Positions 330-19,096 of a DNA stretch of 26,362 bases are shown one piece after another. The notes below the pieces were generated by a model. It worked only from the letters and a program-made list of their open reading frames with translations. It did not search any database and was not told the origin of the DNA. How positions within the stretch are numbered: the first letter of the stretch is position 1; every line of letters begins with the position of its first letter. Origin of the DNA: an uncultured Pseudomonadota bacterium. GTDB lineage: Bacteria; UBA10199; CAZHVX01. The stretch is taken from NCBI GenBank assembly GCA_964536295.1, contig CAZHVX010000005.1:1613-27974 (forward strand), in the 5' to 3' direction. A program made the translations under genes and the position numbers.

Positions 330-545
330 ATGGCAGTAGAAAAAAATATGGCATCCTCGAGTCTAGTTGAGGTTATCGATCGTATTTTGGACAAGGGCGT
401 TGTAATTGACGCTTGGGCAAGAGTTTCATTGGTCGGTATCGAACTGTTATCCATCGAAGCAAGAATCGTTTTGGCTTCAGTGGAAACATATTTGAAGTAT
501 GCCGAAGCTATTGGCTTAACAGCTTCAGCTGCAACTCCAGCGTAA
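330..545 (+). CDS. gvpA: Gas vesicle structural protein GvpA.
   Basis: The protein [63 protein letters not shown]... carries the canonical GvpA signature ([43 protein letters not shown]). The RBS AGGAGGTG sits 7 nt upstream of ATG 330. The ORF-track start at 324 is a GTG just upstream in the same frame. Confidence 0.92.
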
Positions 546-2439: not shown

Positions 2440-2754
2440 ATGGGGAACTTGAGATGCGCATTTTGCCACGGCTCTGGAAAGGATCCCTTTGAAATATTAT
2501 CTAAGATGTCAACCTGTCAGGTCTGCAACGGCGTAGGCAAGAATAACATTGAGGATCCAACTCGAACGTGCGTCTTTTGTCAGGGAACAGGGGTTCATCC
2601 TTTTTCAAGGCTTTCTTGCACGGTGTGCAAAGGTAAGGGCCAGATTACATCTAAAGGTAAAGGAAAGAAGTGTTCCGATTGTCATGGGACAGGAAAATCT
2701 TTCGGCGAAAATATGCCGTGTTTGACATGTAAGGGAATGGGGGTTCTCAAATGA
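2440..2754 (+). CDS. Small zinc-finger protein made of six CxxCxGxG repeats. This is the DnaJ cysteine-rich-domain motif, here as a stand-alone DnaJ-like zinc-finger protein.
   Basis: The motifs CAFCHGSG, CQVCNGVG, CVFCQGTG, CTVCKGKG, CSDCHGTG and CLTCKGMG are present. The RBS GGAGGGAGG precedes the start. CxxCxGxG is the defining repeat of the DnaJ/Hsp40 CR domain. Confidence 0.7.
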   Translation: MGNLRCAFCHGSGKDPFEILSKMSTCQVCNGVGKNNIEDPTRTCVFCQGTGVHPFSRLSCTVCKGKGQITSKGKGKKCSDCHGTGKSFGENMPCLTCKGMGVLK

Positions 2755-3215
2755 AACCCAAGATTCTCAAAAAAAGCAATGGAAGGGCCACAATTAAGTG
2801 TACCTTTTGTCATGGTAAAGGCACGGATCCCTTTGAGGTTATGTCTAAGCTATCCCGTTGTTCGATTTGTCATGGCAAAGGTGAGGTGATGATCCAAGAA
2901 CCGTTTGCCCCCTGTGCCTATTGTCATGGTACGGGAGTCCACCGGGACAGCCGTATGAGCTGCCTGGTTTGTCATGGCAAAGGGGTTGTGCATATTGATA
3001 GATCATCGAACACCTGTGAACTTTGTGGCGGAACCGGCAGGCAGCCAGGGGAATATCTCCCTTGTCTAATGTGTAAAGGAAAAGGATTTCTTGTTCCGGG
3101 TGAAATTGTGGCCAAGCGAAAAATTAAGAGTACAGACAAAACAAAGAAGCTGGGCAAAAGTGATAGGTTGAAATTGATGAAAAAAAGAGCAACTTTTGTT
3201 AAACGTGAAACCTGA
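2751..3215 (+). CDS. Second stand-alone CxxCxGxG-repeat zinc-finger protein (six repeats) with a K-rich C-terminal tail.
   Basis: The motifs CTFCHGKG, CSICHGKG, CAYCHGTG, CLVCHGKG, CELCGGTG and CLMCKGKG are present. It shares a 4-bp ATGA overlap with the upstream paralog. Confidence 0.7.
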   Translation: MKPKILKKSNGRATIKCTFCHGKGTDPFEVMSKLSRCSICHGKGEVMIQEPFAPCAYCHGTGVHRDSRMSCLVCHGKGVVHIDRSSNTCELCGGTGRQPGEYLPCLMCKGKGFLVPGEIVAKRKIKSTDKTKKLGKSDRLKLMKKRATFVKRET

Positions 3216-3845: not shown

Positions 3846-4766
3846 ATGGTAGAAGAATTAACAACAGTATTGGAGCCACAATCACTACCTAATTTTGTAG
3901 AGACACCATATGTAAAAGGGGTTACTGAGCGAGCTTTAGACTATATCAAAGCTGGCTTTCCAGTCCATTTTCGTGGCGTCTCCGGCACAGGTAAGACAAC
4001 CTTGGCCATGCATGTCGCTAGTATTCTTGGCAGACCCGTGGTTATGATCCACGGTGATGAGGAATTCTCTACATCAGACCTGGTGGGAGGTGAACATGGC
4101 TACAGCATGCGGAAGGTGGTCGATAATTTTATCCATTCGGTCTTGAAGACACAGGAAGATATGACCAAAAAGTGGGTAGATAACCGCCTGACGGTTGCAT
4201 GTAAATATGGTTTTACATTGATCTATGATGAATTCACGCGGTCCCGTCCAGAGGCAAACAACGTCCTGCTTTCAATCTTGCAAGAAAAGATGATGGACCT
4301 TCCAGCGGCAAGGGAGGGTGGAGAAGGTTACCTGAAGGTAGACCCAAATTTTACCGCCATCTTTACAAGCAACCCCGAGGAATATGCCGGCGTTCATCGT
4401 TCACAGGATGCCCTTCGTGACCGGATGGTAACACTGGATCTAGATTTTTTCGATGAAGAGACAGAGGTAGAAATTACTACGGCCAAATCTGGTTTGATAA
4501 AACCGGATGCAACAAAGATAGTCAGGATCGTTCGTGACCTAAGGGAATCGGGCGTATGCGAATTTGAGCCGACCGTTCGTGGTTGTATCATGATTGCAAA
4601 GACGTTGTCCGTATCGGATGGAAATAAAGCGATTTCAGCTGATAACCGCAGGTTTGTGGCTATAGCTCAAGATATTTTGGCATCAGAGACATCACGAATC
4701 GGCTCTAAGAGCAATGAAAAGAAGGTAAAAGAAGCAATATTAAAAAGTGTTGAAAAGTACTGCTAA
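3846..4766 (+). CDS. gvpN: Gas vesicle AAA+ ATPase GvpN, copy 1.
   Basis: It has the Walker A motif GVSGTGKTT and Walker B motif LIYDEF. Its length and arrangement match GvpN, and it is ~60% identical by eye to the second copy at 5110. The RBS AAAGGAGGG precedes ATG 3846. The ORF-track start at 3759 adds an implausible leader. Confidence 0.9.
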   Translation: MVEELTTVLEPQSLPNFVETPYVKGVTERALDYIKAGFPVHFRGVSGTGKTTLAMHVASILGRPVVMIHGDEEFSTSDLVGGEHGYSMRKVVDNFIHSVLKTQEDMTKKWVDNRLTVACKYGFTLIYDEFTRSRPEANNVLLSILQEKMMDLPAAREGGEGYLKVDPNFTAIFTSNPEEYAGVHRSQDALRDRMVTLDLDFFDEETEVEITTAKSGLIKPDATKIVRIVRDLRESGVCEFEPTVRGCIMIAKTLSVSDGNKAISADNRRFVAIAQDILASETSRIGSKSNEKKVKEAILKSVEKYC

Positions 4767-4802
4767 TGGCTGATGTAGAAAAATGATCATAGGAGGTAAA
4801 TT

Positions 4803-4973
4803 ATGTCACTACTAAGAGGATTTTCAAATGTGGATAAGGAAGGAAAGATTCCGATTCCCAATAATATTAAAAGGGAATTGAAGCTAAAACCGGGCGCAAT
4901 GGTGGAGATTAGGGTAAGCGGACCCAATAATGCCCCATACATCATTGTCCGACCGAAGAAGACATTACGTTAG
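4803..4973 (+). CDS. Small protein of 56 aa with an AbrB/MazE/SpoVT-type swapped-hairpin-like motif. Candidate DNA-binding regulator or antitoxin-like protein. It is absent from the ORF track because it is under 60 aa.
   Basis: The RBS is strong (AGGAGGT, 7 nt upstream). The protein MSLLRGFSNVDKEGKIPIPNNIKRELKLKPGAMVEIRVSGPNNAPYIIVRPKKTLR contains 'G.I.IP..IR..L.L..GD.VEI' resembling the AbrB-N/MazE signature. Confidence 0.45.
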   Translation: MSLLRGFSNVDKEGKIPIPNNIKRELKLKPGAMVEIRVSGPNNAPYIIVRPKKTLR

Positions 4974-5109: not shown

Positions 5110-6063
5110 ATGGACTTTTTAGAATCATGTGCTATTCAAATTTCCCCGGATCAACCATCATTTGTTAAATCTCCATATATTGAGGAAATTGTTGGCCGTG
5201 CCATGAACTACATTAAAATTGGGGCACCTGTCCACTTTCAGGGACCGTCCGGTACGGGTAAGACCACATTGGCCATGTACATTGCGGGTAAATTGGGGAA
5301 GCCCACAATACTTATACATGGCGATGAGGAATTTGGCACATCAGATCTGGTTGGGAAAAGCAATGGATATCGTTCCAAACGGGTTTATGACAACTTTATA
5401 CAATCGGTTAAAAAGTTTGATGAAAAGTTCGAATCATCATGGGTTGATAACCGCCTCACCTTGGCCTGCAAACATGGCTGCACTCTTATTTACGATGAAT
5501 TTACTCGTTCGCGACCAGAGGCCAATAATGTCCTTTTATCGGTCCTGGAAGAAAAAATACTTGATATTCCAACTGCTGCTGGTTCCGAAGATGCAAACCT
5601 ACTCCACGTTCATCCGGATTTTACAGTCATTTTTACAAGCAATCCTGAAGAATATGCCGGTGTTCATAAATCGCAGGATGCCTTAAGGGATCGGATGATA
5701 ACGATTAACCTGGATCATTATGACCGGGATTCTGAAATTACTATTACAGAGAAAAAGGCGCAGGTCCCGCGAAAACAGGCCTCGATAATAGTAGATCTGG
5801 TTCGTGATTTTCGAAAAACTGAACAATATAAATTCAGTCCCACGGTGCGCGCTTGCATTATGATTGCAAAAATTTTAAAACTTGGCGGTGCAAAACCAAA
5901 CAGCAAAGACGATTTATTTATGAGGACCTGCTTTGACATCCTTGATCCGGAGACATATCGCGTTGTCGGCACTGGAAAGGAAGAGATGAATAGAAACAAG
6001 GCACGTACAATCATAACGAAGTTGGTGGCAAAACACTGCGATAATGGGGGAAAGACAAAATAA
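5110..6063 (+). CDS. gvpN: Gas vesicle AAA+ ATPase GvpN, copy 2.
   Basis: It has the Walker A motif GPSGTGKTT and is collinear with copy 1 (the motifs NRLT.ACK.G.TLIYDEFTRSRPEANNVLLS and FTSNPEEYAGVH.SQDALRDRM are shared). The RBS AGGAGGTG is present. Confidence 0.9.
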   Translation: MDFLESCAIQISPDQPSFVKSPYIEEIVGRAMNYIKIGAPVHFQGPSGTGKTTLAMYIAGKLGKPTILIHGDEEFGTSDLVGKSNGYRSKRVYDNFIQSVKKFDEKFESSWVDNRLTLACKHGCTLIYDEFTRSRPEANNVLLSVLEEKILDIPTAAGSEDANLLHVHPDFTVIFTSNPEEYAGVHKSQDALRDRMITINLDHYDRDSEITITEKKAQVPRKQASIIVDLVRDFRKTEQYKFSPTVRACIMIAKILKLGGAKPNSKDDLFMRTCFDILDPETYRVVGTGKEEMNRNKARTIITKLVAKHCDNGGKTK

Positions 6064-6076
6064 AAAGAGGTGTCCT

Positions 6077-6406
6077 ATGAAAAATAAATTTCAGGGTTTA
6101 GACGCTATTCCCACAATGCAGAAAAAGAAAATTCGCTCTATGCCCAAAACAGAAGGACAGGACTATCTGGATCTTTATATCCTGGAGAAGGAGAAAAATA
6201 GATTAAAGCAGGAGGAACATCAGGCAAAGAAGCGTTCCAAACAGGTTGAGGAAGGATTAAAATTTGCGGAAGAAGAGATAGGGAGATTAGAAAAAGAACT
6301 GCCTGAGAGAAGTAAGGAAACAAGAGAGGGAAAAGGCAAGAAAAAAGACGAGTTCAAAAAACGGCTACCAAAAAAACCGTTTAAGGTGATGAAACTTGAC
6401 TACTGA
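6077..6406 (+). CDS. Hypothetical K/E-rich coiled-coil protein.
   Basis: The RBS AAAGAGGTG precedes ATG 6077. No recognisable motif is present. The sequence is strongly charged (EKEKNRLKQEEHQAKKRSKQVEE). Confidence 0.4.
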   Translation: MKNKFQGLDAIPTMQKKKIRSMPKTEGQDYLDLYILEKEKNRLKQEEHQAKKRSKQVEEGLKFAEEEIGRLEKELPERSKETREGKGKKKDEFKKRLPKKPFKVMKLDY

Positions 6407-13092: not shown

Positions 13093-13200
13093 AAAGTGTA
13101 TAGGTGTATAAGTGTATGAGTTTTTAAGTTAGGAAATGAAAAATTTAGACATTTTAACTTATATACTTATACACTCAAAAACTTATACACTAGTAAAGAT
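13093..13200 (+). promoter_or_regulatory. Intergenic module 1. Forward 8-bp tandem units (GTGTATAG GTGTATAA GTGTATGA GTTTTTAA) are followed by a central AT-rich segment and then the same units in reverse orientation (CTTATATA CTTATACA CTCAAAAA CTTATACAC).
   Basis: The direct and inverted octamer arrays are seen directly. The module lies immediately upstream of the gvpF at 13201. Confidence 0.55.
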
Positions 13201-13959
13201 ATGACAGAGCTTGGACAATACATATATTGCATAATAGGGGCCGACGAACCGAAACAGTTCGAATCGATTGGAATAGACGATTCTCATCCAGAGATATATA
13301 CTGTTAATTATGAAGGCTTGGCTGCCGTGGTGAGCGATTCGCCGGTGAAGACATATCAACTCTCACGCGCCAATATGATGGCCCATCAAAAGGTCTGTGA
13401 AGAGGCAATGAAAGGACATACAGTCTTGCCGGTCAAGTTTTGTACGATTGCCGAGAAGAAAGGAATGATAGAAGAAAAGGTCTTAAAGAGACGCTATAAA
13501 GAATTTCAAAAAATGATGATAGATATGAATGGTAAAACTGAACATGGCCTTAAGATGCTTTGGATGGATATAGACAAGGTGTTTGCACAGATCGTGGAGG
13601 AAAACGAGGATATCAAGGGACTGCGTGATTCTTTAAAATGGAAGCCGCATACGAAAATTCACTACGATATGATTCATGTGGGTGAAATGGTTGAAGCGGC
13701 CCTGAAGGAAAAGAAGAAGAATTTCGTAAAGGAAATAGTTAAACCTCTTAAGTTGCTTGCTGAGGATTGCCGTGAAAATGATACTCATGGAGACAAAATG
13801 ATCATAAATGCATCTTTTCTAGTGAGTGAAGAGAATCAATCCGAATTTGATAATCGAATTGGTGAATTAGAAGCTTCTTATAAAGAGGATATAAAAATAA
13901 AATACGTAGGTCCCATTCCACCATTCAATTTTGTAGAAATTGTGGTGCATTGGGACTGA
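13201..13959 (+). CDS. gvpF: Gas vesicle protein GvpF/L family.
   Basis: QYIYCIIG..., AAVVSD, LPVKF.T and C-terminal VGPIPPFNFV are present. It is paralogous to 12343-13092. Confidence 0.85.
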   Translation: MTELGQYIYCIIGADEPKQFESIGIDDSHPEIYTVNYEGLAAVVSDSPVKTYQLSRANMMAHQKVCEEAMKGHTVLPVKFCTIAEKKGMIEEKVLKRRYKEFQKMMIDMNGKTEHGLKMLWMDIDKVFAQIVEENEDIKGLRDSLKWKPHTKIHYDMIHVGEMVEAALKEKKKNFVKEIVKPLKLLAEDCRENDTHGDKMIINASFLVSEENQSEFDNRIGELEASYKEDIKIKYVGPIPPFNFVEIVVHWD

Positions 13960-14061
13960 TGGGAGTGTATGAGTATATGAGTGCATAAGTACATAAGCAT
14001 ATAAGTTGAAGTGATTGAAATTTCTATAATCTAATTTAGAAACTTATACACTGAGGTTAAT
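13960..14061 (+). promoter_or_regulatory. Intergenic module 2. An octamer array (GTGTATGA GTATATGA GTGCATAA GTACATAA GCATATAA) is followed by the conserved core AGTTGAAGTGATTGAAATTTCTATAATCTAATTTAGAAACTTATACAC, which contains a perfect TATAAT at 14025-14030. Candidate gvpG promoter or operator.
   Basis: The ~48-bp core is ~90% identical to 17126-17173. TATAAT is present. The -35 is ambiguous: TTGAAG sits 13 bp upstream. Confidence 0.55.
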
Positions 14062-14427
14062 ATGGGTTTAATATTAAACATACTGGGGGCACCGATAGCG
14101 GGGCCAATTAGGTTCTTACAGTGGACGGCCGAAAAGGTAAATGAAACCGTTCATAAAGAAAGGACTGACAAATCTAAGATCCAGGCGGAACTTCTATCGC
14201 TCCAGATGCGCATGGAAATGGATGATATTACCGAAGAAGAATTTACAAAGAGAGAAGATGAACTTCTGGCGCGATTAGATGAAATTAATAAAATCGAAAC
14301 AGGTGAACCAATAGAAAAGAAAACAAAAAAGAAAAGGGGGGCTTATGCCAAAGAAAAGAAAGCTGGGCAGGTCGATCAGCAAAAAGAAGAAAACGACAAA
14401 GAAAGTGACGAAGAAGAAGACGTTTAA
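14062..14427 (+). CDS. gvpG: Gas vesicle protein GvpG, with an acidic/basic low-complexity C-terminal extension.
   Basis: The N-terminus MGLILNILGAPIAGPIRFLQWTAEKV..., followed by EEEF..RE.EL...L, is the conserved GvpG pattern. The last ~35 aa come from purine-rich low-complexity DNA that is also read in another frame by the 14345 ORF. Confidence 0.75.
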   Translation: MGLILNILGAPIAGPIRFLQWTAEKVNETVHKERTDKSKIQAELLSLQMRMEMDDITEEEFTKREDELLARLDEINKIETGEPIEKKTKKKRGAYAKEKKAGQVDQQKEENDKESDEEEDV

Positions 14428-14716
14428 GAAAGCAGCAAAGAAAAAGACAGCGAAGAAGGCGACAAAGAAGACAACAAAGAAGACGACAAAGAAGACAACG
14501 GCAAAGAAAAAGACAGCTAAGAAGGCGACAAAGAAGACAACCAAGAAGAAAGCGGCAAAGAAAAAAACAGCTAAGAGAAAAGACAAAGCCACTTTACTAA
14601 AAGTAGAAAAGAGGCAGGTCCTTTCAGAAATTCAGGCATTACGTGAAAAGTTAAGAAAAGCACGTGCTAAGAATATTAAGCAAAGACAAACAGATTTTAC
14701 TAAATACACACGCTGA
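14345..14716 (+). CDS. Lysine-rich, histone-H1-like basic protein with K-K-T/A-T/A-K-K repeats. Candidate DNA- or surface-binding protein. It overlaps the 3' end of gvpG in the +1 frame.
   Basis: An independent RBS-like run AAAAGGGGGG sits 5 nt before ATG 14345. The protein MPKKRKLG...KKTTKKVTKKKTFKKAAKKKTAKKATKKTTKKTTKK... has a non-repetitive C-terminal 40 aa (LLKVEKRQVLSEIQALREKLRKARAKN), which suggests real coding. Low-complexity DNA gives open frames easily, so caution is needed. Confidence 0.45.
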   Translation: MPKKRKLGRSISKKKKTTKKVTKKKTFKKAAKKKTAKKATKKTTKKTTKKTTAKKKTAKKATKKTTKKKAAKKKTAKRKDKATLLKVEKRQVLSEIQALREKLRKARAKNIKQRQTDFTKYTR

Positions 14717-14738
14717 AACGCAAAGGGAGGTGAGCCTT

Positions 14739-15005
14739 ATGGCCGATTTATCAAAAGCAAAAGAAAAGATAGGTCAGTTTTTCACTGACGAACTCAAGAA
14801 GGATAAGGATGCTCTCAAGTTCCTAGAGGTTACTAAAACAGATGCCGGTTGGTGTGGAAGGGTAGAAGTGGCCGAGAGAAACATCTATCTTAAGAAAATG
14901 GGTTTTCCCAATGTGCTCGACAAAAATACGTACAACGTTCAGTTAGATCCCAGTCTTAACGTTATTGGGTACAAGCAGGAAGGCAACGAAAAAGAAGAAG
15001 AATAA
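14739..15005 (+). CDS. gvpO: GvpO-like gas vesicle protein, paralog 2.
   Basis: The RBS AAGGGAGGTG precedes ATG 14739. The motif DAGWCGRVEVAERNIYLKKMGFPNVLDKNTYNVQLDPSLNVIGYKQ parallels 8102-8383 and the GvpO pattern. The ORF-track start at 14664 lacks an RBS. Confidence 0.6.
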   Translation: MADLSKAKEKIGQFFTDELKKDKDALKFLEVTKTDAGWCGRVEVAERNIYLKKMGFPNVLDKNTYNVQLDPSLNVIGYKQEGNEKEEE

Positions 15006-15112
15006 AACGTAGAATCGCGGTGCCCCCCGATGTGTAGGGTGCGCCATGCGCCCTTTGACAAGGAAGCAAATAAAGGCAGCTTCTTTGTTAAAGCGCCCAT
15101 GAAAGGTGATTT

Positions 15113-17089
15113 ATGGAGAATAAAAAATCTCCATCCTTTTTGACTAATGGTCAAAAAAGACTGATATTTTTTGGTGGCAAAGGCGGCGTGGGTAAAACCA
15201 CCACCGCCGCCGCGTCAGCCATTTTTATAGCCAGGCAATTTCCTCAAAAAAAGGTTCTTGTTCTCTCCACCGATCCCGCACATTCCTTGTCCGATTGTTT
15301 TGAGATATTGCTTAATGATGAGGTTTCTTCGATAAATGGGTTGTCGAACCTCTTTGCTAGAGAATTAGATGCTGCTCGTTTATTAGATGCGTTCAAAGAT
15401 AAGAATGAAAAGATTATCAAGGTGTTGGCCGAAAGGGGAACCTATTTTGATAATGAGGATATTGAAAGTTTCTTTTCTTTATCACTCCCCGGTATGGATG
15501 AAGTAATGGCGGTTATAGAGATATATAATCTTTTTGTAAAAGGTGAGTATGAAACGATTATTATCGATACCGCGCCTACCGGCCATACTATGAGACTGCT
15601 TTTACTTCCTAACCAACTGGAGCAATGGATAGATCTTTTTAACTTGATGCAAGAAAAGCATCGGATCATGACTCGCCGTTTTTCCGGAAGATATGCGCCT
15701 GATGAGGCAGATAAATTTCTTGAAGATTTGACTCATGACCTGAAAGAAATGAGGAGCCTGCTTTCCAATCCTGCTATTACGGAGTTTGTTCCAATCACCA
15801 TCCCTGAGAAAATGAGCTTTAATGAAACGTGTAGACTTCTTGGGGTCTTGAGAGATTGTCATATGCCGGTAAGGAATATTATTGTTAACAACGTGATAAA
15901 GTCTGAGTCTTGTGAATATTGCCAAAAACAATATGAGGCACAAAAATCTGCCATAGAAAAAATCAGGAATTTATTTAAAGATTTTAATATAATGCACATG
16001 CCGCTATATCCGAAGGAGGTGCGGGGAGTCAATGCGCTCAGCGAATTTGCAGGCAGTTTAGTGGGTGAAGAAGTAAACTTTCAAGGGATGGTTCATAGGT
16101 CCAAAAGGAGTGATGGTGATCAACGTATCAAACTTGAACGTTTTCTAAACGACGATTTACAGATGTTGCTTGTTGGAGGCAAAGGAGGAGTTGGAAAGAC
16201 ATCAATTGCAACTGCACTTGCATTAAAGTTTTCCGGGAAATATCCAGATAAAAAAGTCTTACTTTTTTCTACCGATCCTGCCCATTCCTTGTCGGATAGC
16301 CTTGGGCAAGAAATAGGGAATAAAGTAACACAAGTCCAGGCAAGGCCTCTTGCTTCAAATTTATTTGCCATCGAAATCAATGCTGAAAAACTATTTGATG
16401 ATTTCGCAAAAAAATACAAAAGAGAAATAGATGATGTATTTGATGGTTTTTTCAATAGCTCATCTACAGCGGGAATGGATTTTAGCTACGATCGAAGTCT
16501 GATGAAAAAACTTATAAACGTATCGCCTCCTGGACTGGATGAATTGATGGCCTTAAAGGAAATCATGAATTACATAGATAAAGATACATACGATTTCTAC
16601 ATCTTGGATACCGCTCCAACTGGGCATTTGCTACGTTTTTTGGAGCTGCCTTCATTGGTACAAGGCTGGCTGAAGGCAATCTTTAGGCTTTTGATTAAAT
16701 ATGAAGGTATGGTGAATTTGAACAGTGTGGCAGAAAAGATGGTGGAACTTTCAAAGAGTGTAAAGCGGATCAAGGCGATCCTTTGCGATTCCAAAAGGGC
16801 CAAATTTCTTGCAGTTACTATTCCTGAAGCAATGGGGTTTGAAGAGACAAAAAGGCTTGTGGATTCACTTCACAATTTGGATATAGCGTGCACGGGTCTT
16901 GTCATTAATAAAATTTTCCCCAGTGTAAAGTGTGGCTTTTGTGGAATAAAAAGGGACGAACAATTAGAATATGCTAAAAAGATAGAGAAGAAACTTAATA
17001 TAAAACATGTTGCCCGCGTACCTCTGTTTCCATCAGAGATCGTGGGGGTTGAAAAATTAACAAAGTTTGGAGACAGAGCTTTTTATTAG
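15113..17089 (+). CDS. Fused tandem ArsA/Get3-family ATPase (two complete ArsA-like halves).
   Basis: There are two deviant Walker A P-loops (GGKGGVGKTTTAA and GGKGGVGKTSIAT). There are two STDPAHSLSD motifs. Two A-loop or signature motifs, DTAPTGHT(M/L)R(L/F)L, are present. The fused-dimer architecture is typical of ArsA and Get3 anion-pump or tail-anchored targeting ATPases. Confidence 0.85.
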   Translation: MENKKSPSFLTNGQKRLIFFGGKGGVGKTTTAAASAIFIARQFPQKKVLVLSTDPAHSLSDCFEILLNDEVSSINGLSNLFARELDAARLLDAFKDKNEKIIKVLAERGTYFDNEDIESFFSLSLPGMDEVMAVIEIYNLFVKGEYETIIIDTAPTGHTMRLLLLPNQLEQWIDLFNLMQEKHRIMTRRFSGRYAPDEADKFLEDLTHDLKEMRSLLSNPAITEFVPITIPEKMSFNETCRLLGVLRDCHMPVRNIIVNNVIKSESCEYCQKQYEAQKSAIEKIRNLFKDFNIMHMPLYPKEVRGVNALSEFAGSLVGEEVNFQGMVHRSKRSDGDQRIKLERFLNDDLQMLLVGGKGGVGKTSIATALALKFSGKYPDKKVLLFSTDPAHSLSDSLGQEIGNKVTQVQARPLASNLFAIEINAEKLFDDFAKKYKREIDDVFDGFFNSSSTAGMDFSYDRSLMKKLINVSPPGLDELMALKEIMNYIDKDTYDFYILDTAPTGHLLRFLELPSLVQGWLKAIFRLLIKYEGMVNLNSVAEKMVELSKSVKRIKAILCDSKRAKFLAVTIPEAMGFEETKRLVDSLHNLDIACTGLVINKIFPSVKCGFCGIKRDEQLEYAKKIEKKLNIKHVARVPLFPSEIVGVEKLTKFGDRAFY

Positions 17090-17214
17090 TGCAAAAGTGT
17101 TTAAGTGTATAAGTGTATGAGTATATAAGTGTAGAAGTTGAAGTAATTGAAATTTCTATAATCTAACTTAAAAACTCATACACTTAAACACTTATGGACT
17201 TAAGGGAGGTATTT
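17090..17214 (+). promoter_or_regulatory. Intergenic module 3. An octamer array (GTGTTTAA GTGTATAA GTGTATGA GTATATAA GTGTAGAA) is followed by the conserved core AGTTGAAGTAATTGAAATTTCTATAATCTAACTTAAAAACTCATACAC, with TATAAT at 17156-17161, and then reverse octamers. Candidate gvpJ-K-L promoter or operator.
   Basis: The core is near-identical to module 2. It sits immediately upstream of gvpJ. Confidence 0.55.
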
Positions 17215-17885: not shown

Positions 17886-18651
17886 AGTTGCAAAATATCT
17901 CTATTGTATTGTCGACGCGAGTGAAGAGGTTAATTTGGGCAACGTTGGTATTGAAAGAGGTGAGGTTTATACAATTGTTTACAAAGATATCGCAGCAATA
18001 GCGCACGATTGTCATCCTGAGCCTTATCAATCGGATGATAAGCAGGTGGTAGAGAGCTGGGTCAAATCTCATCAAGCGGTCATTGATCTATGCTGGGAGC
18101 GATTTGGTACAATACTGCCTTTTGGATTCGATACCATAATCCAGGGGAGTGAAGAAAGAAATCCTCTTGAAAACACAAAAAAATGGATTAGCGATGATCA
18201 TGATAAGTTAAAGGGACAAATTGAGAAGCTTCGTGGAAAGGCGGAATATGGGATTCAGATTTCCTGGGATCCAAAAATTATCATAAATGAATTTTGCAAA
18301 ACCAACAAAGAGATTAAAGCCTTGGAAAAAGAGATATCTACAAAATTAGAAGGTGCGGCATATATGTATAGGCAAAAGCTGGAGGGGTTGTTTCGCAGCG
18401 AATTGGAGAAAAAGGCAAATGAGTTTTTTAAAGAAGCATTCGATAATTTTAAGGTCTATCTGAAAGATGTCAAAGTAGAAAAGGTCAAGAAAATGGATGA
18501 CGGTAGGCAGATGCTGATGAACCTTTCGTGTCTTTTAGAAAAGGGTGAAACTAAAGATCTTGGGGACGAATTGGAGAAAATTGATAAGCGGGAAGGCTTC
18601 TTTGTGAAATTTACCGGCCCATGGCCACCTTATTCTTTCGTAAGTGCATAA
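17872..18651 (+). CDS. gvpL: Gas vesicle protein GvpL/GvpF family.
   Basis: The N-terminus AKYLYCIVD... and the C-terminal FTGPWPPYSFV are GvpF/L hallmarks. The start is taken as TTG 17872, preceded by GAAGGGAGG 5 nt upstream. The ATG at 17803 is an alternative in-frame start that would overlap gvpK by 83 nt. Confidence 0.75.
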   Translation: MINPKVAKYLYCIVDASEEVNLGNVGIERGEVYTIVYKDIAAIAHDCHPEPYQSDDKQVVESWVKSHQAVIDLCWERFGTILPFGFDTIIQGSEERNPLENTKKWISDDHDKLKGQIEKLRGKAEYGIQISWDPKIIINEFCKTNKEIKALEKEISTKLEGAAYMYRQKLEGLFRSELEKKANEFFKEAFDNFKVYLKDVKVEKVKKMDDGRQMLMNLSCLLEKGETKDLGDELEKIDKREGFFVKFTGPWPPYSFVSA

Positions 18652-18682
18652 GTGTATGAGTGTATGAGTTGGAGAGTTGAAT
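18640..18682 (+). promoter_or_regulatory. Intergenic module 4 (short): GTGCATAA GTGTATGA GTGTATGA GTTGGAGA octamer units upstream of the four-helix-bundle gene.
   Basis: The GTGTATRA unit family is the same as in modules 1 to 3. Confidence 0.45.
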
Positions 18683-19048
18683 ATGAAAATAGAGAGATTT
18701 GAAGAATTAGATTGCTGGAAGGCAGCACGGGAACTAGTGACAATAGTTTACAAACTTACACGAGAGAAAATGTTTAGTAGGGATTTTGGATTGAGGGATC
18801 AAATTCAAAAAGCTGCTATTTCAACAATGGCAAATATCGCCGAGGGGTTTGCTGCCAATTCGGATAGGGAATTCATTAGATTCCTAGGATATGCAAGTCG
18901 TTCTGCTATTGAAGTTCAATCACATTTATATGCTACCCTCGATTTAGAATATATAGAGCATGATCAATTTGATAAGGCCTTCAATAAGGCTCAAGATTGT
19001 ACAAATTTATGTAGAGGTTTAATTCGATATTTAAAAACAAAAACTTAA
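18683..19048 (+). CDS. Four-helix-bundle protein of the '23S rRNA intervening-sequence / S23 ribosomal protein' family.
   Basis: The protein MKIERFEELDCWKAARELVTIVYKLTREK...RDQIQKAAISTMANIAEGFAANSDREFIRFLGYASRSAIEVQSHLY is the characteristic pattern of this small, widely scattered family (..W..A..L...IY.LT..FP..E...L..QL.RAA.SI..NIAEG....S..E...FL..A.GS..E....L). The assignment is motif-based. Confidence 0.6.
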   Translation: MKIERFEELDCWKAARELVTIVYKLTREKMFSRDFGLRDQIQKAAISTMANIAEGFAANSDREFIRFLGYASRSAIEVQSHLYATLDLEYIEHDQFDKAFNKAQDCTNLCRGLIRYLKTKT

Positions 19049-19096
19049 AAACAAAAACTTATGGACTTATAAACTTATACACTCATACACTTATTT
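19049..19096 (+). promoter_or_regulatory. Intergenic module 5: reverse-orientation octamers (ACTTATGG ACTTATAA ACTTATAC ACTCATAC ACTTATTT) directly abutting the gvpM start.
   Basis: These are the reverse complement of the GTGTATRA family. There is no RBS between the module and ATG 19097. Confidence 0.45.

Follow-up and report, generated by a model that had tools for sequence, protein, structure and literature searches.

The closest described counterpart of the gene considered here is gvpI of Halobacterium salinarum, which belongs to the p-vac operon gvpFGHIJKLM. GvpI, a non-essential and very basic accessory protein (pK 10.75, with 23 lysine or arginine residues in its first 53 amino acids), has its gene downstream of gvpG. 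It binds or oligomerises acidic gas-vesicle proteins (Gvps), which it has been proposed to connect, and its loss leads to very long vesicles (PMC7688916). Here we describe a lysine-rich open reading frame (ORF) that overlaps the 3' end of gvpG in a gas-vesicle (gvp) cluster of an uncultured bacterium, contained in a 26,362-nucleotide (nt) stretch of contig CAZHVX010000005.1; "the window" denotes this whole stretch. From our sequence analyses, we conclude that the lysine-rich ORF is probably a real, young, orphan gene. We lean towards the view that gvpG and this ORF are two separate, overlapping genes on the same strand, and that the lysine-rich product may act as a GvpI-like polycationic gas-vesicle accessory, a fuller interpretation that we hold to be somewhat more likely than not.

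The product shares with GvpI the size of a small accessory-type protein (123 amino acids, compared to 144 in GvpI), the location of its gene downstream of gvpG in a gvp operon, and an extremely basic N-terminus. The two sequences are, however, not detectably similar, as BLASTP with the pNRC100 translation WP_010890525 gave E = 2.6 and 12.7 bits. GvpI is rich in arginine, glutamine and lysine, is non-repetitive and has an acidic C-terminal half, whereas the window protein consists of lysine/threonine/alanine tandem repeats followed by a basic helical C-terminus. The gene encoding GvpI overlaps its neighbours by just 4–8 nt, while the lysine-rich ORF does so by 83 nt, and GvpI is archaeal, whereas the window cluster is bacterial in type. 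Because sequence similarity is lacking, the likeness to GvpI is one of analogy and not of family membership.

The lysine-rich frame and its coding potential

The features at the end of gvpG are as follows.

14062–14427, plus strand: gvpG, 121 amino acids; core residues 1 to ~92 (to ~14337), tail residues 93–121
14325–14331, plus strand: A_AAA_AAG heptamer, formed by the gvpG-frame codons ACA AAA AAG
14334–14341, plus strand: Shine–Dalgarno (SD) sequence AAGGGGGG, pairing with the 16S rRNA 3' end at -11.2 kcal/mol, 3–4 nt before ATG 14345
14338–14427, plus strand: window-specific GvpG tail GAYAKEKKAGQVDQQKEENDKESDEEEDV, from the alignment with 9 GvpG relatives
14345–14716, plus strand: lysine-rich orphan ORF, ATG 14345 to TGA 14716, in the +1 frame relative to gvpG
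14386–14585, plus strand: purine-rich tandem array, three copies of a 54–66-nt unit, ~22 amino acids (KKATKKTTKKTTKKTTAKKKTA)
14405–14407, plus strand: alternative GTG start, giving a 103-amino-acid product; the gene caller's choice on Logan contig L001 (493–804)
14576–14713, plus strand: non-repetitive 3' part, 138 nt, 20% T, encoding a basic amphipathic helix (RKDKATLLKVEKRQVLSEIQALREKLRKARAKNIKQRQTDFTKYTR)
14275–14592, minus strand: antisense ORF (poly-Phe/Val/Ala) of 105 codons, an artefact of the pyrimidine-only complement
14725–15005, plus strand: SD GGGAGGTGA (14725–14733) followed by the GvpO-like gene, ATG 14739, 88 amino acids

An earlier note on this DNA had described the overlap and offered two readings of it, either two overlapping genes or recoding. 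The overlap is present, spans 83 nt (14345–14427) and lies entirely within the window-specific tail of 29 residues, the ATG falling in gvpG codon 95. The lysine-rich frame itself is open from 14315. Its product contains 48 lysines and 9 arginines against 5 acidic residues (net charge +52), with about +50 of this charge in an N-terminal part of ~85 residues. The C-terminal helix is basic and amphipathic, with a heptad-like spacing of hydrophobic residues (L, V, I, L, L). Single-sequence AlphaFold2 modelling returned one long helix (predicted local distance difference test score, pLDDT, of 89; predicted template-modelling score, pTM, of 0.35), which is weak evidence and is uninformative for the lysine-rich part, because a helix is the routine modelling outcome for sequences rich in lysine and alanine.

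The reading as two overlapping genes is supported by the start signal, by codon-phased synonymous variation among the repeats and by the unique 3' end. The ribosome-binding-like run that the earlier note had seen before the ATG is an SD sequence whose strength falls within the range of accepted genes in the cluster. Comparably strong SD sequences precede 29 of the 572 plus-strand ATGs, and approximately 20 of these 29 are real gene starts, including those of GvpA at 330 and the AbrB/MazE-like gene at 4803. SD sequences of the GGGGG type, with G–U wobble pairing to the anti-SD, also precede the genes at 2751, 19569 and 19945, and the G6 run at 14336–14341 is the sole such run on the plus strand of the window.

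Within the array, the repeat copies in the lysine-rich frame begin at 14387, every period reported by Tandem Repeats Finder is a multiple of 3, and self-blastn aligned 134 nt at a 66-nt offset with 80.6% identity. The copies differ by 3–10 synonymous codon changes per offset in the lysine-rich frame and by 0 in the other two frames, and the non-lysine codons of the repeats follow a [A/G]-C-N pattern with all four bases at the third position. Codon log-odds against local composition are negative in all frames of the repeat part, where only the frame ranking is usable. The T content there is 1–9%, and open frames are expected in the repeat part because its DNA is nearly T-free.

The 3' part is open in the lysine-rich frame only, with a codon score of -1 bit compared to -39 and -50 bits in the other frames. 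Dinucleotide shuffling left the lysine-rich frame open in 3.9% of cases for this 138-nt part and in 1.1% for all 286 nt following the gvpG stop. The earlier note had taken the non-repetitive C-terminus to suggest genuine coding. At its end, the lysine-rich ORF stops 8 nt before the SD sequence of the next gene and 22 nt before its ATG. Without the lysine-rich gene, the junction would contain a gap of 311 nt, compared to 4–122 nt in the relatives.

The alternative start at GTG 14405 was considered and rejected, as it has no SD sequence (-1.8 kcal/mol) and the lysine/threonine repeat pattern of the frame begins upstream of it, from 14381. Gene callers such as Prodigal cap same-strand overlaps. 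Given this cap, the missing SD sequence and the upstream repeats, the call on the Logan contig is no argument for a shorter gene.

The gvpG tail and the junction with the GvpO-like gene

For comparison, we used nine loci (L003, L005, L006/7, L008/9 and L011–L014, with Halobacterium pNRC100 added as L010). The gvpG product, which ends in ...QQKEENDKESDEEEDV, matches the Pfam GvpG family PF05120 with 72.1 bits (cut-off 30.6; E = 4.2e-20) over residues 10–74 only, and matches the NCBIfam GvpG model weakly (16.8 bits against 85). The GvpG proteins of nine clusters align with its first 92 residues, which, together with the gene order gvpF, gvpG, gvpO-like, arsA, are shared with canonical GvpG. While the position after gvpF agrees with that in the relatives, the length does not: the relatives' GvpG proteins comprise 75–91 amino acids at 9/9 loci, and all 9 stop at or before window residue 92 in the alignment. 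In contrast to canonical GvpG, the GvpG of the window carries 29 extra acidic, lysine/glutamate-rich residues, for which the 5' end of the neighbouring gene, read in a different frame, supplies the codons.

Past residue 92, the gvpG-frame DNA consists of the SD sequence and start of the lysine-rich gene and of its first repeat copy, and the final 14 codons of the tail are this first repeat copy read in the other frame. The GvpG stop codon TAA (14425–14427) arises from a TTT phenylalanine codon of the lysine-rich frame. Paralogous repeat copies carry ACG ACA at this position, and without the TTT the gvpG frame would be open to 14520. Because the DNA after residue 92 belongs to the neighbouring gene, the acidic tail (...KEENDKESDEEEDV) is an out-of-frame repeat, and we infer that it is most simply an incidental extension into T-poor repeat DNA.

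In the relatives, the GvpO-like gene or other small genes directly follow gvpG; GvpO-like orthologues do so in L003, L005, L006, L008, L012 and L014. No lysine-rich gene was found among these relatives and their GvpG ends by residue 92, so that, as judged from sequence comparison, the ~400 bp at the gvpG/gvpO-like junction (~14338–14716) is a lineage-specific insert. A search for its source by blastn and tblastn in the window and the related loci returned only the insert itself and its internal repeats. What lies at the gvpG/gvpO junction varies among the related clusters: L011 has a 69-amino-acid zinc-ribbon gene there (4109–4318), and L013 has three small genes (4034–4817), encoding a DnaJ-type zinc finger, a TPR-like protein and an 86-amino-acid cysteine-containing protein, of which the last has a relative also in L014.

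By sequence, the lineage is isolated. The closest GvpF relatives are ~50% identical, a GvpF search of GTDB genomes led to Dehalococcoidia at 30–42% identity, a search of 5.8 billion protein clusters with the window GvpG returned the self-match only, and a second metagenome scan with a GvpO-like alignment gave no relatives of the locus. Synteny is nevertheless kept across the related loci, in the order gvpF, gvpG, gvpO-like, then often arsA and gvpA/J. As the nearest GvpF relatives are only ~50% identical, a synonymous-site analysis of both frames is not possible.

Proposed function and competing explanations

The insert combines a codon-phased, purine-rich tandem array and a unique tail of 140 nt with its own SD sequence and ATG, which sit exactly where GvpG ends in the related clusters. 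In the reading that we favour, the insert would be translated independently of gvpG into a protein of ~14 kDa, with a polycationic lysine/threonine/alanine-repeat N-terminus and a short, basic, amphipathic and coiled-coil-like C-terminal helix. As the DNA beyond the point at which gvpG ended ancestrally contains almost no T, the gvpG frame would run on and meet no stop until the TAA at 14425, and GvpG would gain its 29-residue lysine-, glutamate- and aspartate-rich tail as a by-product.

By analogy with GvpI, the lysine-rich product may bind acidic tails and surfaces, namely the GvpG tail, the ...EKEEE end of the GvpO-like protein and the vesicle wall. Acidic C-termini are encoded nearby in the GvpO-like gene (...NEKEEE), in gvpO (...SLEEE) and in gvpG (...DEEEDV). 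The proposal in the earlier note that the lysine-rich protein binds acidic gas-vesicle components is a reasonable one. Basic tails occur elsewhere in the cluster: the GvpC-like protein with 44-amino-acid repeats (1377–2369) ends in ...KHKKTAHKQKKKTKRRTKRS, and basic C-terminal stretches are also found in the zinc-finger protein at 2751–3215 and the ORF at 6044–6406. Tails of complementary charge seem to recur throughout the cluster.

Several points weigh against a real gene with this function. Most of the lysine-rich ORF is of low complexity, where open frames come cheaply, and a same-strand overlap of 83 nt is unusually long for bacteria. Neither the 123-amino-acid nor the 103-amino-acid product was present in the protein collection searched, and no homologue of the ORF was found in ~15 billion proteins (with exhaustive scoring of 1.84 billion representatives), nor was a lysine-rich ORF seen at the gvpG junction in any of the nine related loci. 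As none of the related clusters contains the ORF, purifying selection is not measurable, and the proposed function rests on charge, gene neighbourhood and analogy with a protein that is not homologous. In the exhaustive phmmer search, the 1.84 billion representatives yielded two matches with E ~1e-4, both compositional and neither aligned by BLASTP with composition correction. A word-indexed search of 5.8 billion clusters gave three lysine-rich, compositional matches, each with an unrelated C-terminal domain. The C-terminal 50 amino acids had no match in Joint Genome Institute (JGI) metagenome contigs, and the ORF gave noise only against Pfam (E up to 10) and NCBIfam and no match in the PDB.

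That the ~400-bp insert is an untranslated purine-rich spacer or a functionless young proto-gene, with only the extended GvpG being made, we consider unlikely, while granting it some weight. The T-poor DNA leaves several frames open, antisense included, and the lack of homologues and the absence of the ORF from the relatives, and of its product from the protein collection, are consistent with such a chance ORF. Against it stand the strong, genome-typical SD sequence with an ATG at the right spacing, repeat variation that is codon-phased and synonymous in the lysine-rich frame only, the 3' part with its 20% T, its single open frame and its far better codon score in that frame, and a stop tightly packed against the SD sequence of the next gene. 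Where the protein is taken to be real, the main functional rival is a role in the nucleoid or in nucleic-acid binding. Bacterial DNA-binding proteins of the H1-like type have a composition of AKKA/TKKT repeats, and AKKA/TKKA repeat proteins include chlamydial Hc1/Hc2 and AlgP. The lysine-rich product shares with H1-like proteins the KKAAKK/KKTTKK repeat composition and a very high positive charge, its best database matches are lysine-rich, and some lysine-rich database proteins also share its layout of a lysine-rich N-terminus followed by a helical C-terminus (P0001–P0003, P0127), which in some is a coiled coil (P0127). The term "histone-H1-like" used in the earlier note is therefore apt for composition, but not for family, since no H1, Hc1 or other family model matched and homology is supported by neither family model nor pairwise alignment. 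The gene is flanked by gvpG and the GvpO-like gene in a gvp operon that is tightly packed, rather than lying in a nucleoid or developmental locus, and the cluster is full of acidic-tailed partners. We regard an H1/Hc1/AlgP-like nucleoid-associated or nucleic-acid-binding protein as distinctly unlikely.

Recoding, the other option raised in the earlier note, is not borne out. The slippery heptamer is present in the gvpG frame just upstream of the overlap, and a -1 slip on it would indeed add a short basic tail of 25 further residues (EKGGLCQRKESWAGRSAKRRKRQRK) before the TGA at 14406–14408; Lys-tRNA has a low basal rate of slippage on A_AAA_AAG. The phase of the heptamer is the same as in E. 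coli dnaX (-1), and the SD-like element AGGUGA lies upstream. This element, the sole one upstream, is weak (-6.8 kcal/mol) and located 18 nt before the heptamer, compared to the spacing of 10–14 nt that is stimulatory for -1 frameshifting. The G-run lies downstream of the heptamer and not 10 nt upstream, and can therefore not act as in dnaX. The 3' hairpin of dnaX has no equivalent here, the fold of the 89 nt downstream being no more stable than that of shuffled sequences (minimum free energy -9.8 kcal/mol, shuffle mean -9.1 kcal/mol, z = -0.32). Six genes of the window carry this heptamer in frame (6968, Hsp20, CDC48, gvpG, arsA and gvpA), among 44 in-frame heptamers of the X_XXY_YYZ type. 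The site lies in a lineage-specific region that every relative lacks, so that conservation is not demonstrable; the GvpG orthologues, which stop by residue 92, have no extended shifted frame, the heptamer itself being unchecked in their DNA. We found no link between gvpG and frameshifting in the literature. A programmed -1 frameshift that yields a GvpG isoform is accordingly most improbable, and the heptamer looks like a chance by-product of Lys-Lys codons. A +1 event would, as the earlier note recognised, fuse GvpG to the lysine-rich frame, and any +1 shift in 14315–14427 suffices. A single gene encoding GvpG with a basic tail of ~125 residues, by +1 shift, transcriptional slippage or an uncorrected 1-nt indel in the A6 or G6 run, could make use of perfect re-pairing after a +1 slip on either run (P-site candidates GGG_G at 14338–14341 and AAA_A at 14326–14329), and GvpG relatives end in short basic stretches (e.g., ...QVERRR and ...GHKKSSV). 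However, no related GvpG has a long basic tail, and two independent assemblies agree base for base: the contig that Logan assembled from run SRR11548473 matches the window exactly over its whole length (13913–15276), and since this independent assembly is identical, the A6 and G6 runs are not the artefact of one assembler. In prfB, an SD-like run lies 3 nt before a shift-prone codon. The locus shares with E. coli prfB (+1) an AGGGGG-type SD-like run nearby, but has no CUU_UGA-type shift codon 3 nt past it; the zero-frame codons after the G-run, GCU UAU GCC, include neither a stop nor a slow codon and allow no +1 tRNA re-pairing on UAU_G. An SD sequence and ATG at the ancestral end of gvpG are better explained by an independent start, and we consider the fusion quite improbable. 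Also improbable, if marginally less so, is that the overlap is a functional dual-coding module, in which frame 0 would provide a polyanionic GvpG tail and the +1 frame a polycationic protein, the two being electrostatically matched so that the orphan protein would be tethered to GvpG at the growing vesicle, or in which low-level +1 slippage on A6/G6 would produce an isoform of GvpG fused to polylysine.

Should the lysine-rich protein be produced and act on vesicles, as we favour, it would be a bacterial, non-homologous counterpart of the haloarchaeal GvpI, suggesting that gas-vesicle systems have acquired a polycationic "glue" or regulator of vesicle length or clustering more than once. The gene would also be a clean case of a young gene in which codon-repeat expansion overprints the end of a neighbour. 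Where gas vesicles are engineered as acoustic reporters, their assembly or clustering could be influenced through a small charged accessory of this kind. Should the dual-coding or fusion-isoform interpretation be true, overprinting on a codon-repeat expansion would represent a new way to build a gas-vesicle accessory. If the lysine-rich protein is not made, the insert merely lengthens GvpG with low-complexity sequence. Either way, the slippery heptamer gives no ground to expect recoding. Low-complexity, lysine-rich proteins and chance slippery heptamers are common. The novelty, which is modest, lies in an orphan polycationic gene that derives from codon-repeat expansion and overprints a lineage-specific gvpG extension.

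The gas-vesicle cluster and other features of the window

The 26-kb window is one plus-strand gvp cluster, whose proteins also include GvpK, with the following Pfam assignments (start positions).

3759 and 5110, plus strand: two GvpN-type AAA proteins
8102, plus strand: GvpO
8547, plus strand: Hsp20
9120, plus strand: CDC48-type ATPase
11306 (with DnaJ domain), 12343, 13201 and 17803, plus strand: four GvpL/F paralogues
14062, plus strand: GvpG
15113, plus strand: tandem ArsA ATPase
17194 and 19097, plus strand: GvpA/J-type proteins
19945, plus strand: Hsp70
22658, plus strand: DnaJ
several positions in the cluster, plus strand: small DnaJ-type zinc-finger proteins

Strong SD sequences followed by ATG reveal genes that are too short for the ORF list, which starts at 70 amino acids, or that are mis-started in it. 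By SD strength, the true starts are probably the internal ATGs at 3846 (GvpN, ORF 3759), 6077 (ORF 6044), 17215 (GvpJ, ORF 17194) and 23814 (response-regulator-like, ORF 23805). The short genes found in this way, and one further family assignment, are listed here.

330–545, plus strand: canonical GvpA, 71 amino acids; strong SD and ATG
4803–4973, plus strand: AbrB/MazE-like protein, 56 amino acids; strong SD and ATG; counterpart in L005
19381–19560, plus strand: lysine/glutamate-rich ORF, 59 amino acids, directly after gvpA; strong SD and ATG
18677–19048, plus strand: "23S rRNA intervening sequence protein" (23S-IVP) family gene, PF05635, E = 1e-29

An octamer-period motif, AACTTATACACT with core ACTTATAC, occurs 27 times in the window at ≤2 mismatches, with 2.0 occurrences expected. 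Neither this motif nor the window as a whole gave an Rfam match. Arrays of the octamer are found at 13095–13191, 13964–14052, 17096–17192, 18643–18670 and 19056–19091. One match (16509–16520) lies inside arsA, and the other 26 lie in or at the edge of intergenic gaps. The gaps concerned precede gvpF (13201), gvpG (14062), gvpJ (17194), the 23S-IVP gene and gvpA (19097), and the genes at 13201, 17194 and 19097 have no good SD sequence. In the three largest gaps, minus-strand copies come before plus-strand copies, thus forming inverted tandem arrays. The PF05635 gene is located between gvpF/L and gvpA and has octamer arrays on both flanks.

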